64,000 bases of DNA. Origin: Escherichia coli (lineage in GTDB: Bacteria > Pseudomonadota > Gammaproteobacteria > Enterobacterales > Enterobacteriaceae). The stretch lies in NCBI RefSeq assembly GCF_045037415.1, contig NZ_CP173438.1. One strand, written 5' to 3'. The position numbers are program-made. Every line of letters begins with the position of its first letter. The stretch's first letter is position 1. Below, in pieces: positions 34,685 to 43,600 of the stretch.

Positions 34685-37600
34685 ATCGACTTCGAAGGTT
34701 CGAATCCTTCCCCCACCACCATCACTCGATTCCATTATCAAACCTTCGGCTTCTCCCCCATTCGCCGTAAAAACTGCTGCTGTAGCCTCAACAAATCCGC
34801 TAACGTCAACAACTGATAATCCAGACCTTGCTGGCTGGCAATTTGCGCAATAATGCGGCTTAGCGCCGAATAATGGCGATGATGCCAGTGAGGAAACAGA
34901 TGATGGGTAAGGTGCAGATTAATCCCACCCAGCCAGTAGCCAAGCCATGCAGGTTGCGGCGTCCAATCAAAGGTGGTAGCAAAGGTATGCGCCAGTCTGC
35001 CCACGGGCATTTTGCCCTCTTCTGGTGGTAACTGCGTATGTCCCTTCGCCCAGTGCGTTCCAATAATCAACGTCACAAAAATCAATGACGCCAGCAGCTG
35101 GCTGAGCAGATAAGTCAGCAGGATGGTCATAAAACTAAAATCAGACAAAAGCCAGGGAATTATCAGACACAGCGCACAATGCGCCAGTTTCCCGGCTAAG
35201 AAATATCCCCAGCCAGCAAAGCCTCGCAGGGCCAGATGTCGCGTGACCGGCGTAAACCCTGCGCGATCGAGCCAGTCCACTACCCAGATATACCAGGGAA
35301 AGGTGAGCGCGGCGACCAGTGGCCAATAGCGATGTTGCTGGCGCATAAAAGGTCGCCACCGTTGCCACGGCGTCTGGCGAAGAATGCCATTTTCTGCTGT
35401 ATCTGGATCGTAAAATTCAATATTGGTAAAACCGTGATGAAAGCGAACGTGGCGCACCCGCCAGCAGTCCGGATCTAGCCCCATAGGAAAAGCAACCCAC
35501 CGGTTAAGCCGGGCATTGGTCTTTTTACCACGCAAAAACGCATCATGCGAAGCGTCATGCACCACATTGACCGCTAACAACATGGCGCAAAACATCATCG
35601 CGAGATACCACAACAGATACAGTCCCCATTGACGTTGAAATAACGCCAGTAAGTAACAGGAGAAACAAGCAATAATCAACACCGCCATTTTGACGAATGC
35701 CCATCCGTCGGCATACCGATGATCGCCTGATTTCGCCAGATAAACTTTCGTACCGCTTTGCAGTTGTTTCACCAGTTGTGGATCATCGGCAGGAAAAGTG
35801 ATTAACCTGTCGGGATTAAACAGGTTCATACTGTTTCCTTAGCGATTTACGTCCTACGCCGATTACAAATAACAGGCAATGGGCCAGCAGAATACCCACT
35901 AATCCCTTCCAGAGCAGAGTACTCCATGAACACATATAGACAATAAAATAGAGCAGTGACAACGTCACAGAGCACCACAAAATCATACCCCAATGCTGCC
36001 CGTCGCTCATGCCCCCCAGCGCAACGGAGCCTGCCGCCAGCAGAACAAATAATACGGCTTGCTCGCTGGTAATAAACTCAATGCCATAGCCATATTGTTG
36101 AATGTAGCCAAGCACCAGCATAAACAGCAGGATCACCCCTGCCCCTACCGCCCATGGAGAACTCTGGTAGCGACCTTCAATCGCTTTGCCAAATGAGCAA
36201 AAGCCCATTAAGCGTAAAAATGGCAGATTACTCTCGCGCATCGGGTTACAGGACAAGCGACTATTTTTTACGCCGTAGCCTACGTCGTATTCCGGCCCGG
36301 CACTATACGAACCGAAAAGTTTATCCCACAACAAAAAGGTGCCACCGTAATTGGTATCGGCATATTGCTTTTGATTCAGATGATGGACGCGATGATGCGA
36401 AGGCGTGATCAGCACTTTTTCCAGCCAGCCCAGTTTCGGCGTTAGTGCGTTATGGTTAAAAAATTGCCAACTATAGTGAATAATAGAAACCGCCAAAAAG
36501 ACCTGTAACGGCACACCAAGCATCGCCAGCAGCATAAAAAACGGGATTGAGGTTAACGAGGAGTACCACGAGTTCCGCACGCCTAATGACAGGTTGTAGT
36601 GTTCCCCCTGATGATGCACCACATGTACCGCCCACAGCGGGCGCATTTCGTGATGCCAGCGATGTAGCCAGTAAAAGCCGAAATCCCACGCCAGGATAGT
36701 AAACAACCACAGCAGGATCACCGGCACATTATCAAACAGTCCAAGGCTGAAGTGATTGACCACCAGGCCATAGCAGAGCACTTCCAGGCAGCGAAATAAC
36801 CACAGCATCATATGACCGGAGTTGATATTAAAAATAACGTCCAGCCAGTCCACTTTTTGCCGCCCGGTGAATTGCAACACGCCCGCTTCGGCTAACACCA
36901 ACAGCACCATCGATATGATGGGGAATAATAAATCACTCATATTGTGTCTTCCTTTTCTCGCATGTTGCGCATATCCAACCGCAAATCGACGCCAGCAACG
37001 CGCCGCCTACTAAATCGATAAATAAATGTCTGCGTAATTGCAGAATCGAAAAGGCGATTGCTATCGCCCAGACCACGCTCATTAGCGTCAGCCAACGGTT
37101 CCCCTTTTTAGCAATCGCCCATACCGCCAACAGCGTTAGCGCGGCGTGTAAGGAGGGAAAACAGTTCTGGCTTGAGTCAATGGCGATCAGCCTGTTGAGT
37201 GCGCCCGCGGATATCCCCATCTGATCAAACGAGGGATAATGCATGGTTGTGGGCCAGAGAAGATAAAATACGCCAGCCACCAGTGCGGAAATTTGCATTG
37301 AACGGGCCAGCCAGCGCAGGTGGCAAAGTGGCGTGGATAAATAACCTAACGGCACAATGAAAAAAAACGAGAGATACAGCCACACAGCGGAGGGGGAAAA
37401 CGCAATCAAATTATCAATTATTGACGGTGTTAATTGATATCCCTCACCTTGCAGGTAGTCGCTAAAGTTGTAGATAACCCCAACAGTTCCCCAGCCCAGC
37501 AGCATCTGTTTCAGGCGTAGCAGTGAATTGCTCATTCCCGCCCCCACTGACGCACAATGCGCCGCCGCTTGGCTGTAAAAGAGACTGGCACAGTTTGCAG

Positions 37601-40600: not shown

Positions 40601-43600
40601 TACGAGGATCTTCACGGTAAAAGCACCATGCCAGCCAGCGTTAGTCCCGCTGCCGTGCCAATCAACATTACAGGTTTATCCGCTGTGAAACGACCGCTAA
40701 TCACTGCTTCATGCAGCGCCGTGGGGATAGAGGCCGCGACCTGATTGCCGTAAAAACGATACACATCGATGAGCGCAGATTCCGGCACTCGCAGCCGTTT
40801 ACGCATATGTTCAAGGGAAAGATGACTGGCCTGATGCGGAACGACCGTGCCGATATCAGACAGTTGCAGGCTGCTTTTTTGCAGCAACCGAGAAAAATAA
40901 TCTTCAATAAGCGAAGAAGCAAAACGAAACAGCGGTTTCCCCTGCATATGAAAAAGAAAGTCGCTATCACTCACACCAGAGCGAGGATTACGCCGCGTAC
41001 CGCCAGCACGAATTTCACACAGTTCGCTGCCTTCGGGATACATTTCGATCAGGCTAGCGATAATCCCGCTGCGCCCATCGCCCCGCTCAACAATCGCGCA
41101 CGCCGCGCCATCACCAAAAATTAATGAAGACTCTTCATGATCCCAGTCGATACCGCGTGAAGCAATATCTGCCGAAACGATGGCAATGCGTCGATATGCT
41201 CCACAGTTTAATAATCCGGCAGCGACTTCAAGAGCGGAAATAAAGCTCACACAGCTACTGTTGATATCAAACCCGGCAACGCCTACGGGCATGGCTGCGG
41301 CTTTAAGAATATGAATTGCGCTACAGGGTAATGCCTGTACGGCAATGGCCGATGCACAAATTAGCAGATCAATATCAGAAGGATTTAAGGCTGCCGCTAC
41401 TAACGCATTATGTAAAGCCTCTGCCGCCAGTTCGGCCTGGCTGGCGTCGTTGCGGGCAAAATAGCGCCAGCAAATACCGGAACGTCGCTCAACATAGCCA
41501 ACTGGCTTATTTAACTGAACATCCAGTTGTTTAGAAGTGATTTGATCAGGGGGTAAGGCGATCCCCGTGGCGATTATTTTTAACGCCGCGGAGATCGTCG
41601 GTTGATTAGGTCGAGCCACGGTCAGTGCTCCTTCACTGCTCCATAGGTGGACCAATCATATAGATGAAGTACGTTTCCCTACAATCCGAAAAATCGGCAG
41701 TGTGTAACCGCCGATGTTTGGTTTAGATAATGTTTGGTTTAGATAATTAGTGACGAGCGCGCACCAGCTGATACTTACGCGTCAGATACTCCACCGGGAC
41801 ACTCCAGATGTGTACCAGACGCGAGAACGGGAACAGCAGGAATAACGTCATCCCCAACACCAGGTGCAGACGGAAGATAAACGCCACGCCATCAAGATGT
41901 TGAGAAGCGCCACCGTGGAAGGTCACTACCGACTGCGCCCAGCCAACCAGTTTCATCATCTCGCTACCGTCCATATGCTGAGCAGAGAACGGAATGGTCA
42001 GCAGGCCCAGCGCGCACTGGATAACGAGCAGCGACAGGATCAGGATATCCGCTCCGGTAGTCGTTGCACGCACGCGTGGGCTGAACAGACGGCGTTTCAA
42101 CAACAGCACGCCGCCAATCAGACACAGTACGCCGCTGGCACCACCAGCAAACATCGCCATTTTCTGCTTCACTTCAATCGGCAGCCAGGCTTCATACATC
42201 CAGTGCGGCGTCAGCATACCGAAGAAGTGACCGACAAAAATCCCCAGAATACCGATATGGAACAGGTTCGACGCCAGATTCATCCCTTTGCGATCCAGCA
42301 TCTGGCTGGACGCCGCGCGCCAGGTATACTGCCCGTAGTCATAACGCAGCCAGCTACCAATCAGGAAGACCGCCCCGGCTATGTACGGGTAGATATCAAA
42401 GAAGAACATATTCAGGAATTGCATTAGTGCTGTCCTCCGGTGGTGATATTCAGATATTGCGGCGCGACGGCACCGGCAAAGCGACGCTGATGAGCAGTGA
42501 TTGCTGAATCACCGCAGCCTTTGTCAGCAAAGAATTTAACCTGCTCTTCTTCCCAGACTGCATCCAGCGCCTGCGGCGTATCGTCGCGCGCTTCGTCGGC
42601 AATTTTTTCCGCCACTTTGTCGCTGTCGATTGCGGTATTCGCCAGTTTCAGCAGCAGATCAAACAGCACGGCATAACGGCTTTCACGCTGTTGCAGACGC
42701 GCACTCAGCAATGCCAGAATCGGCGCAATATCTTTCAAACCCTCCACGGCTTCGCTTTGCGGCAGCTGCGCCAGGTACTCCAGATACAGCGGCAGATGGT
42801 CGGGCAATTCGCGGCTGTTTAACTGCAAGCCGTGCTGCTCGTACTGCGCCAGCAGATCCACCATCGCCTGGCCGCGGTCACGGGATTCACCGTGAACATG
42901 TTCAAATAGCAACAGTGACGTGGCGCGGCCACGGTCGAACAGTTCGCTGTACTGCGCCTGGGCATCGAGCGGATCCATCGTCGTTAAATCGCGCAGGAAA
43001 ATGCCCAGCGCATGGGCATCCTCTTTTGGCAGATTTTTCGACGCGGCAATCGCCTCAAACATCTCTTGTTGATGCTGCCATAAGGCAGCATCCGGATATT
43101 CAAGGAGACGCGATACAATCACGAGTTCGATCATGGGTGCGGCTCCGTTTTGCTGGTTACGTCGATGGCATCGATACGGCGGCTGTTGAACAGATTGAAT
43201 TTGGTATCTGAACCGTGGCAGCCATCACCAAAGGTAAAGCCGCAGCCATTTTTCTCCGGGAAGGCTTCCCGCGCCAGTTCACGATGACTGCTCGGCACCA
43301 CAAAGCGATCTTCGTAGTTGGCAATAGCCAGATAACGATACATCTCCTGTGCCTGGGCTTCGGTCAGACCGACCTCTTCCAGCGCACGGGTATCGACTTT
43401 ACCGTCAACGGTTTCAGCACGTTTGTAATGACGCATCGCCAGCATACGTTTCAGCGCGCGCAGTACCGGTTTGGTATCACCGGCGGTCAGCAGATTCGCC
43501 AGATACTGTACCGGAATACGCAGGCTTTCGACGTCTGGCAGAATGCCGTTGCTGCCCAGTTCACCCGCGTCTGCCGCAGACTGAATCGGCGACAGAGGCG

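Follow-up and report, generated by a model that had tools for sequence, protein, structure and literature searches.

In the olefin pathway OleABCD, and likewise in the lipstatin (LstABCD) and nocardiolactone pathways, a thiolase-fold ketosynthase is combined with a reductase of the 3-beta-hydroxysteroid dehydrogenase (3-beta-HSD) type, an ATP-dependent carboxylate activator and a hydrolase-fold enzyme, with no acyl carrier protein (ACP). PqsABCDE brings together a ligase, a FabH-like ketosynthase III (KS) and an enzyme of the metallo-beta-lactamase (MBL) fold, and a beta-keto acid is released from the KS III product. The chain-fusing KSs MxnB and CorB form the alpha-pyrones of myxopyronin and corallopyronin, and the PaaK-family enzyme NatL2 makes an ester by ATP-dependent adenylation without CoA, after which a zinc-dependent enzyme processes the ester (PMC7204872). 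Here we describe a seven-gene operon in a stretch of 64,000 nucleotides from Escherichia coli (assembly GCF_045037415.1, contig NZ_CP173438.1; the whole stretch is called the window below). An earlier note on the window had predicted a FabH-like KS, an adenylating enzyme, an MBL hydrolase and a short-chain dehydrogenase/reductase (SDR) of the 3-beta-HSD type at 37532-41619, and had likened their logic to the Ole and Pqs pathways rather than to fatty-acid elongation. All four enzymes were confirmed, on the minus strand, and the cassette they belong to is an analogue, not a member, of Ole or Pqs: the likeness lies in enzyme logic, not in protein families. It is a conserved and widespread biosynthetic module based on a KS III, apparently uncharacterised, and a full-text search of the literature found no publication that describes it. 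A ladderane-genomics paper that mentions an F390 synthetase was set aside because it concerns a different cluster.

A portable synthase core with exchangeable neighbours

The operon lies on the minus strand directly after narGHJI and runs in the order KS, SDR, MBL, adenylating enzyme (adenylase), PAP2-family protein, hydroxylase and desaturase (Table 1). Successive genes overlap by 4, 23, 4, 4, 8 and 14 bp, and the sole intergenic gaps are the 127 bp upstream of the KS gene and the 16 bp after the desaturase gene. Because the genes overlap and only these two gaps are left, there is no room for a hidden ACP, ketoreductase/dehydratase (KR/DH) or acyltransferase gene. None of these is encoded in the operon, as the earlier note had stated. 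Strain 4/4 and many other strains are 100% identical to the window over the operon region, and the RefSeq annotation of one such identical strain lists the same four core products under generic names only.

Searching a single genome from each species, we confirmed 580 loci or more and analysed the 80 that scored best. Sixty-four species-level genomes offered 4.5 kb or more of flanking DNA to either side of the adenylase gene, and 61 of them contained the complete four-gene core; in 75 of 79 loci the SDR, MBL and adenylase genes followed one another without interruption on the same strand. Given this co-occurrence and contiguity, the four-gene set is not a chance juxtaposition: the four genes at the head of the operon form a portable synthase core that is kept together across phyla. 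The core was found in Proteobacteria, Firmicutes, Actinobacteria and Saccharibacteria. Among Enterobacterales, the carriers include Yersinia pestis and Y. similis, the Yersinia pseudotuberculosis complex, Serratia, Pectobacterium, Xenorhabdus and Providencia. Other proteobacterial carriers are Pseudomonas (P. syringae included), many Betaproteobacteria, Haemophilus, Kingella and the bee-gut genera Snodgrassella and Gilliamella, and the cassette extends to Paenibacillus, Streptococcus sanguinis, Lachnospiraceae, Jonesia and Saccharibacteria. At one cyanobacterial locus (L083), the SDR, MBL and adenylase genes were present and no KS gene was detected within the locus region available. The high conservation of the core, its spread over several phyla and its occurrence on conjugative plasmids argue for a selected function.

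Two gene fusions join members of the cassette. A 705-aa MBL::adenylase protein (P0215; L006, 10001-12118) sits on a metagenomic contig in an operon of TetR regulator, KS, SDR, fusion gene and family 4 glycosyltransferase (GT4), and a 642-aa protein (P0196; L005, 8855-10783) joins a PAP2 domain to the adenylase.

The genes that follow the core are an exchangeable set of polar-group-adding or membrane enzymes. Module A, the E. coli type, comprises a PAP2_3 protein, an FA_hydroxylase and one or two FA_desaturases (31 loci). Module B comprises a second OleD-like SDR, a Glyco_transf_21/HpnI-like glycosyltransferase, a 193-aa protein and a family 1 glycosyltransferase (GT1), and was found alone at 8 loci and together with module A at 5 more. 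An ATP-grasp enzyme with a FemAB-like protein makes up module C (10 loci, and 3 more with module A), and a GT4 most similar to lipid glycosyltransferases makes up module D (1 locus in this count). Further neighbours were a sulfotransferase on a Ketogulonicigenium vulgare plasmid, an adenylation-thiolation (A-T) protein resembling nonribosomal peptide synthetases (NRPSs) at L053 and a formyltransferase at L091. The last of these is one of three distant family members that lie on contigs of 5-7 kb and thus show partial neighbourhoods. We take the amino-acid-adding and formyltransferase neighbours to recall lipstatin. Several of the core's neighbours are integral membrane proteins, and all add polar groups or modify lipids; in 6 of the 64 genomes the core stood without a recognised tailoring module. 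The simplest reading is of a core that supplies a hydrophobic scaffold, bearing a free hydroxyl group and probably also a carboxyl, to which different lineages attach differing head groups.

Some individual loci deserve mention. The module B protein of about 190 aa (L012, 13420-14001, and orthologues) is always encoded between the GT21-like and GT1 genes, and the 193-aa form had no Pfam or NCBIfam match. When Y. pestis NCTC5923 (L015) is compared with Y. similis (L014), the PAP2/hydroxylase/desaturase module is gone and the glycosyltransferase module is retained. On the K. vulgare plasmid, which is conjugative (L089, 3500-9230), the core stands beside a divergent TetR regulator and the sulfotransferase. 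A conjugative plasmid of Bacillus mycoides (L090, 4035-10480) carries a six-gene operon of the core, an ATP-grasp gene and a FemAB-like gene, beside an IS6 transposase.

Table 1 Positions in the window of the operon genes and of the features that bound them
Feature	Position	Strand	Size and basis
FabH-clade ketosynthase III (KS)	40612-41619	-	335 aa from the RefSeq GTG start; open reading frame and RefSeq annotation
Extended SDR, 3-beta-HSD type, OleD-like	39599-40615	-	338 aa
MBL-fold di-metal hydrolase, lactonase branch	38815-39621	-	268 aa
PaaK-fold adenylate-forming enzyme, TIGR02304 'F390 synthetase-related'	37532-38818	-	428 aa
PAP2_3-family membrane protein	36933-37535	-	200 aa
Membrane di-iron fatty-acid-hydroxylase/'sterol desaturase' family protein	35816-36940	-	374 aa
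Membrane fatty-acid-desaturase family protein	34738-35829	-	363 aa
Leader between narI and the KS gene	41620-41746	-	127 bp; sequence read directly
Whole segment missing from K-12	34727-41746		7,020 bp; K-12 homology ends on both sides
tRNA-Tyr(GTA), right-hand boundary of the segment	34637-34721	+	ARAGORN

Enzyme families of the cassette

The KS contains the Pfam domains ACP_syn_III and ACP_syn_III_C (read on the P. syringae orthologue), and its catalytic residues Cys123, His262 and Asn292 are intact. It shares with housekeeping FabH the fold, the triad and the His-Gln-Ala motif, but is only 27% identical to E. coli FabH and scored below the cutoffs of both housekeeping models, with 193 bits on TIGR00747 (cutoff 292) and 210 on PRK09352 (cutoff 249), where E. 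coli FabH scored 503 and 476. The host's own fabH is present elsewhere in the genome. The best NCBIfam model was PRK07204, on which the E. coli KS reached 332 bits and a Firmicute cassette KS 514, above the cutoff. The same model was the best for MxnB (322 bits) and CorB (304), and E. coli FabH scored 198 on it. When solved structures in the PDB were ranked by sequence, MxnB (171 bits) and CorB (156) came first, with 33-35% identity to both, followed by FabHs (105-149), PqsD (77-81), PqsC (40-44) and OleA (25-29). A neighbour-joining (NJ) tree of 30 sequences with 100 bootstraps and sparse outgroups, OleA, PqsD, PpyS and DarB not among them, split the three FabHs from all other sequences in 100/100 replicates, held the cassette KSs together as a clade in 92/100 and placed MxnB/CorB as its sister group.

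The residues around the active site were then compared. A glutamate from the partner subunit deprotonates the acyl alpha-carbon in OleA (E117) and PpyS (E105), and MxnB has Val at that position (PMC4578411). The E. coli KS has Leu97 there, and each of the 25 aligned cassette KSs has Leu or Ile, so an OleA/PpyS-type mechanism is not supported. For CorB, the authors tie P266, the proline after the catalytic His, which is shared with 3-hydroxy-3-methylglutaryl (HMG)-CoA synthases, to lost decarboxylation, and propose that it separates His and Asn and so disfavours that reaction (PMC5506619). The corresponding residue is Ala264 in the E. coli KS and Ala in all aligned cassette KSs except that of L049, the motif around the catalytic His reading PHQAS in the KS, PHQPS in CorB/MxnB and PHQAN in FabH. 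The cassette KS thus resembles MxnB and CorB in being their sister clade, in sharing PRK07204, in having them as its best solved-structure matches, and in combining the Cys-His-Asn triad with a hydrophobic residue at the OleA-Glu position. It differs in the residue after the catalytic His, and MxnB and CorB work on chains bound to polyketide synthase (PKS) carriers in large PKS/NRPS clusters, whereas the cassette has no carrier protein. By sequence and tree, with sparse reference sampling, the cassette KS is nearest to MxnB/CorB, and chain fusion itself is a prediction. A 'GGTRRNP' loop common to the KS and MxnB/CorB was considered as a diagnostic insertion and dropped, since E. coli FabH has an equivalent loop.

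Two KS loci stood apart. In a metagenome-assembled genome (MAG) of Methylobacillus (L049, 521-7189), the cassette directly follows the housekeeping plsX-fabH-fabD-fabG-acpP-fabF cluster, and its KS is the only aligned cassette KS with a CorB-like Pro after the catalytic His. In Y. pestis NCTC5923 (L015, 7200-8172), the KS appears as two overlapping matches in different frames and is probably a frameshift pseudogene.

The SDR has an NAD(P)-binding motif GATSGLG at 7-13 and catalytic Y140 and K144, and its P. syringae orthologue matched Pfam 3Beta_HSD, Epimerase and NAD_binding_4. Its best NCBIfam models were two OleD equivalogs (146-152 bits), followed by HpnA at 99. OleD was again the best family for four cassette SDRs from other taxa (Firmicutes, Actinobacteria and a metagenomic proteobacterium) at 177-243 bits, the highest score belonging to a Firmicute orthologue, and was thus on top for 5/5 SDRs tested. 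These scores are roughly 1.5-2 times those of the next family, HpnA, yet far under the 580-bit equivalog cutoff, so that by profile score the SDR is OleD-like and not OleD. The best PDB sequence match was sterol-4-alpha-carboxylate 3-dehydrogenase, which likewise acts on a beta-hydroxy acid bearing a substituent at the alpha-carbon. Cassette SDRs also matched the thioester-reductase domain TIGR01746 at 48-78 bits.

The MBL enzyme belongs to Pfam Lactamase_B and carries an HxHxDH motif, and its metal ligands H101, H103, D105, H106, H193 and D214 were invariant in an alignment of 31 orthologues. The AlphaFold2 model, with a mean predicted local distance difference test score (pLDDT) of 95, was compared with the PDB by Foldseek. 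The closest structures were 4-pyridoxolactonase, AiiA, AiiB, AhlX, GcL and methyl parathion hydrolase (MPH), at E = 1e-17 to 1e-15 and template-modelling (TM) scores of 0.73-0.78. The top 50 Foldseek neighbours were lactonases and related MBL-fold hydrolases, with neither PqsE nor glyoxalase II among them. The NCBIfam and PDB sequence matches were lactonases as well, with no PqsE chain among the PDB sequence matches at E <= 0.001. Because its scores on the lactonase equivalogs were far under their cutoffs (56 vs 325), the protein represents a separate family inside the lactonase branch. The modelled fold and the complete di-metal site fit MBL-fold lactonases (AiiA, AiiB, 4-pyridoxolactonase), and a corresponding activity is predicted.

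The adenylase scored 748 bits on TIGR02304 (cutoff 252), its Firmicute orthologue scoring 563, compared with 15 bits on the PaaK model (cutoff 646) and 21 on coenzyme F390 synthetase (cutoff 459). No capsule (CapK) model was among its seven NCBIfam matches. Its motifs, SSGTSG at 107, YQATEG at 243, RYRLDD at 294 and Lys417, are conserved ANL-type motifs, in which S107, G109, Y243, E247 and G248 are invariant and K417 occurs in at least 90% of sequences. PDB sequence matches were PaaK-family chains only. The AlphaFold2 model (pLDDT 95) has the PaaK fold, with AjiA1, PaaK1, NatL2, BT_0428 and ClxA as top Foldseek matches; the anthranilate-CoA ligase AuaEII came at rank 47 with a TM score of about 0.49. 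The adenylase belongs to a large family, of which 503 clusters at 50% identity scored E <= 1e-30, and the E. coli and P. syringae proteins are 67% identical. The adenylases NatL2, AjiA1 and ClxA are thus among the nearest structures, and the pairing of adenylase and zinc enzyme in NatL2/NatAM parallels the adenylase-MBL pair and its fusion. These enzymes differ in being only about 14-20% identical in sequence to the cassette adenylase and in using aminohydroxybenzoate substrates towards a benzoxazole product, and the zinc partner of NatL2 is, we assume, not of the MBL fold. As a separate observation, a transposon mutant of P. syringae pv. actinidiae in IYO_RS29540, 'coenzyme F390 synthetase', is among reported reduced-virulence mutants, the identity of this gene with the cassette being unconfirmed (PMC9823363).

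The three remaining genes encode membrane proteins. The PAP2 protein matched Pfam PAP2_3 (PF14378) at E = 2.2e-9 and has the catalytic His/His/Asp residues in PSLH (H130) and RRHLFID (H170, D174). Its best NCBIfam match, a weak one, was phosphoinositol dihydroceramide synthase. It fits the PAP2_3 family of phosphotransferases resembling inositol phosphorylceramide (IPC) and sphingomyelin (SM) synthases, and is predicted to be a transferase or phosphatase. The hydroxylase (Pfam FA_hydroxylase, on an orthologue) has histidine boxes at 93-97, 106-110 and 182-187 and matched best the ornithine-lipid hydroxylase OlsE (E = 1e-18). The desaturase (Pfam FA_desaturase, on an orthologue) has the boxes HDASH at 91, HVRFHH at 127 and HLTHH at 306, and many relatives hold two paralogues at its position. 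Neither the hydroxylase nor the desaturase had PDB sequence matches even at E <= 1. No catalytic motif of the operon's enzymes is disrupted.

The comparison with Ole and Pqs that the earlier note had drawn therefore stands in part. For Ole, the best family of the SDR is indeed OleD, but the KS has no counterpart of Glu117 and little similarity to OleA, and the operon encodes neither OleB nor OleC. The best OleD score of the E. coli SDR, 152 bits, compares with the cutoff of 580, the activator has the PaaK fold and is not OleC (an ANL class I beta-lactone synthetase), and the hydrolase is MBL-fold and not an alpha/beta-hydrolase like the decarboxylase OleB, no alpha/beta-hydrolase gene being present. 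Furthermore, the cassette's products evidently carry polar groups instead of ending as hydrocarbons. For Pqs, the same classes of ligase, FabH-like KS and MBL-fold enzyme recur, but PqsD and PqsC match the KS less well than ordinary FabHs do, the MBL enzyme is lactonase-like and not PqsE-like, and the ligase is of the PaaK fold and not of the PqsA type. The cassette also has no anthranilate genes and, unlike Pqs, contains membrane lipid-tailoring genes. What was supported is that the genes are not a set for fatty-acid elongation: they form a self-contained, conserved module, whose KS lies outside housekeeping FabH and whose adenylase belongs to TIGR02304 in a conserved gene context, and not to PaaK, with no CapK model among its NCBIfam matches. 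The placements that the earlier note had named as refuting its reading were therefore not observed.

A tentative pathway and its alternatives

We tentatively read the seven overlapping genes as a single operon whose products build a non-standard lipid and then decorate it, each chemical step being predicted from protein family and gene context. With no ACP encoded, the KS would draw on the host's pool for a fatty acyl thioester, which it would join to a second thioester by Claisen condensation. As the partner, a second fatty (3-oxoacyl) chain is slightly favoured over malonyl, because the sister group of the KS is the chain-fusing MxnB/CorB and its partner reductase is OleD-like. The product would be an alpha-branched, two-chain beta-keto compound, possibly released as a lactone or pyrone. 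The lactonase-fold MBL enzyme would open or release the (thio)ester or lactone to give the free acid, the OleD-like SDR would reduce the 3-oxo acid to a 3-hydroxy acid, and the PaaK-type enzyme would adenylate the carboxylate with ATP and couple it, the result being an ester, an amide, a lactone or a CoA thioester. Modification of the lipid within the membrane would follow, in E. coli by the PAP2_3 protein, the di-iron hydroxylase and the desaturase; in other taxa the decoration would instead be the work of glycosyltransferases, a sulfotransferase or enzymes that add amino acids. Such a pathway would parallel Ole, Mxn, Pqs and lipstatin in its logic while differing from them in its protein families. 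Fatty-acid synthesis already supplies straight-chain 3-hydroxyacyl-ACP, and a dedicated KS and reductase therefore suggest a skeleton that fatty-acid synthesis cannot deliver. The KS phylogeny, the OleD-like reductase and the lactonase-type partner lean towards a two-chain, alpha-substituted product.

Several considerations weigh against this pathway. The residues of the KS lean the other way, towards ordinary malonyl-dependent condensation: both chain-fusion signatures are absent, and such a condensation appears nearly as likely. The tree that joins the KS to MxnB/CorB was built by NJ only, with the sparse outgroups noted above. The MBL enzyme and the adenylase may act in either order, and a lactonase would work to no purpose if it reopened the adenylase's own lactone product. 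It is equally conceivable that the PaaK-type enzyme opens the pathway, providing the primer as a CoA ligase. Finally, the best 80 of at least 580 loci are a sample biased toward close relatives.

The alternative that survives best builds on these residues. It is possible that the cassette follows a single-chain route like that of Pqs, in which the PaaK-type enzyme acts first as a CoA ligase on an unusual acid, the KS adds one malonyl unit decarboxylatively, an MBL thioesterase frees the beta-keto acid and the SDR reduces it, the product being a 3-hydroxy acid whose tail is unusual and which is then decorated. Such a KS would fit both the FabH-type His-Gln-Ala motif and the lack of either chain-fusion signature, PaaK1 and BT_0428, two of the nearest adenylase structures, are CoA ligases, and the core does stand alone in the six genomes mentioned above. 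The pairing of a KS III with an MBL thioesterase also has a precedent in PqsD/PqsE. The MBL enzyme, however, falls in the lactonase branch, with PqsE and glyoxalase II outside its top 50 structural neighbours, and PqsD ranks under the FabHs as a match for the KS. Moreover, the PAP2::adenylase fusion suggests a ligase at the membrane end of the pathway, and the OleD-like SDR points to alpha-substituted 3-oxo acids.

The reductase-domain matches of the SDR bring up a different use of the adenylase, in which the two enzymes together reduce the carboxylate, by the logic of LuxE/LuxC or of carboxylic acid reductase (CAR), to a sphingoid-like 1,3-diol whose primary alcohol would take phospho-, glyco-, sulfo- or aminoacyl head groups. 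Besides TIGR01746 and Pfam NAD_binding_4, the second SDR of module B speaks for this route, as does the alcohol acceptor that PAP2_3, GT21 and sulfotransferase enzymes all require. We consider it unlikely, since the similarity to OleD is two to three times stronger than that to the reductase domain, the 3-hydroxyl by itself could be the acceptor, and a carrier protein or thiol partner for a reductase is not encoded.

A true Ole-type route is somewhat less probable still. A head-to-head 2-alkyl-3-oxo acid would be reduced, the adenylase would form a beta-lactone and the MBL enzyme would decarboxylate it to a long-chain olefin. The OleD-like SDR and the lactonase fold of the MBL enzyme agree with this, and the MBL::adenylase fusion parallels OleBC fusions, which we take to be known in actinobacteria. 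Against these stand the low similarity to OleA with its Glu base missing, the lack of OleB and OleC homologues, and the nature of the product itself, since a hydrocarbon gives no handle for the glycosyl-, sulfo-, phospho- and aminoacyl-transferases that accompany the core.

It is very unlikely that the cassette is degradative or quorum-quenching, with lactonase and reductase inactivating exogenous lactones such as 3-oxo-acyl-homoserine lactones (3-oxo-AHLs) and the ligase feeding metabolism: the nearest relatives of the MBL enzyme do include AHL lactonases, but a condensing enzyme with an intact triad accompanies the core in nearly all genomes, and the genes around it encode enzymes of head-group addition and membrane lipids rather than of catabolism. 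Hardly credible is a set of redundant paralogues that would start or elongate ordinary fatty acids, as the NCBI family name of the KS, 'beta-ketoacyl-ACP synthase III', and the MAG with the cassette adjoining a fab cluster might suggest, for the KS falls under the FabH cutoffs in a clade apart, no ACP, dehydratase or enoyl reductase is present, the reductase is of the 3-beta-HSD and not the FabG type, and the KS gene never stands apart from the MBL and adenylase genes.

The favoured two-chain reading can be carried one step further. PAP2_3, FA_hydroxylase, FA_desaturase and Glyco_transf_21 are the same four Pfam families that serve in eukaryotic-type sphingolipid tailoring, where they presumably correspond to IPC/SM synthase, Sur2, Des1 and glucosylceramide synthase. 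The families are broad, and closer bacterial matches are HpnI (hopanoids) and OlsE (ornithine lipids). Because serine palmitoyltransferase and any other pyridoxal phosphate (PLP) enzyme are missing from the cassette, it cannot make a sphingoid base and the likeness is one of resemblance only. The cassette might instead make a new class of nitrogen-free, ceramide-shaped membrane lipid, in which a chain-fusing FabH-type enzyme provides a two-chain, alpha-branched 3-hydroxy acid backbone and enzymes of sphingolipid families add a phospho-, glyco-, sulfo- or aminoacyl head group; stated in such detail, the proposal is doubtful.

The locus in Escherichia coli and its relatives

Homology to K-12 stops exactly at the narI stop codon (41747) on one side and at the tRNA-Tyr 3' end (34722-34726) on the other, and 16 bp separate the end of tRNA-Tyr from the desaturase stop codon. 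The segment between these points stands in place of about 1 kb of K-12, ychS-rttR/tpr-tyrV, and has a GC content of 51.7%, compared with 49.6% for the window. Carriers of the cassette possess just one tRNA-Tyr at the site of K-12's tyrT-tyrV tandem, rttR/tpr and ychS. This K-12 stretch holds several short copies of the tRNA 3' end, which could have mediated rearrangement.

The leader upstream of the KS gene has features of its own. Two copies of TTATCTAAACCAAACA form a perfect 16-bp tandem direct repeat at 41715-41746 (minus strand), its first base directly following the narI stop codon, exactly where K-12 homology ends. On the 3' side of the repeat, at about 41686-41714 (minus strand), a hairpin TCGGC-N11-GCCGA followed by a T-run looks like a terminator; the terminator scan passed over it, its loop being longer than 8 nt. 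The operon's own promoter presumably lies in this leader, although a consensus scan of 41620-41746 found none. Elsewhere in the window, at about 26782-27829, a frameshifted pseudogene of an IS4-family transposase lies between adhE and tdk.

Of 5,426 complete E. coli genomes, 673, about one in eight, carried the segment, almost always in a single copy. For 570 of these genomes the identity was 99% or higher, and for a further 101 it was 95-99%. Nissle 1917, ATCC 25922, uropathogenic E. coli (UPEC) isolates such as UPEC 26-1 and many human clinical isolates are among them, and we take Nissle 1917, ATCC 25922 and UPEC 26-1 to belong to phylogroup B2. The cassette occupies the same site, directly downstream of narI, in E. 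albertii, Citrobacter gillenii, one Enterobacter species, two Superficieibacter species and four Serratia species. A recent horizontally acquired island was rejected as a simple reading, because the 7,020-bp segment of the window contains no integrase or insertion sequence (IS), its GC content is near that of the genome and the narI site is shared. The locus looks like an old syntenic site that many E. coli lineages are without, rather than a recent island. A role in anti-phage defence was also dropped, since PADLOC gave no matches beyond one marginal hit. Two observations concern single E. coli records. In strain FXCREC145 (NZ_CM135823.1, 4846126-4854217), ISApl1, of the IS30 family, is inserted inside the cassette and makes a natural knockout. 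Two more copies lie on 'plasmid' records of 386 and 542 kb, and these records may be pieces of chromosome that were wrongly assigned.

The cassette is thus found in strains that are in heavy use and of clinical importance, yet its four core proteins bear generic names only. K-12 is without the whole segment, which makes a clean gain-of-function test easy. If the product is an envelope lipid or a surfactant, it could bear on host colonisation, membrane properties and immune recognition, and if the ceramide-shaped reading were true, there would be an undiscovered envelope lipid in E. coli B2 strains, Yersinia, Serratia, oral streptococci and many other bacteria. The enzymology would enlarge the small group of KS III-based routes to lipids that work without an ACP, such as Ole, Pqs and those of the pyrone synthases, adding to it a FabH-clade KS akin to chain-fusing enzymes, a PaaK-type ligase with a lactonase-fold enzyme, and the modular exchange of head groups.

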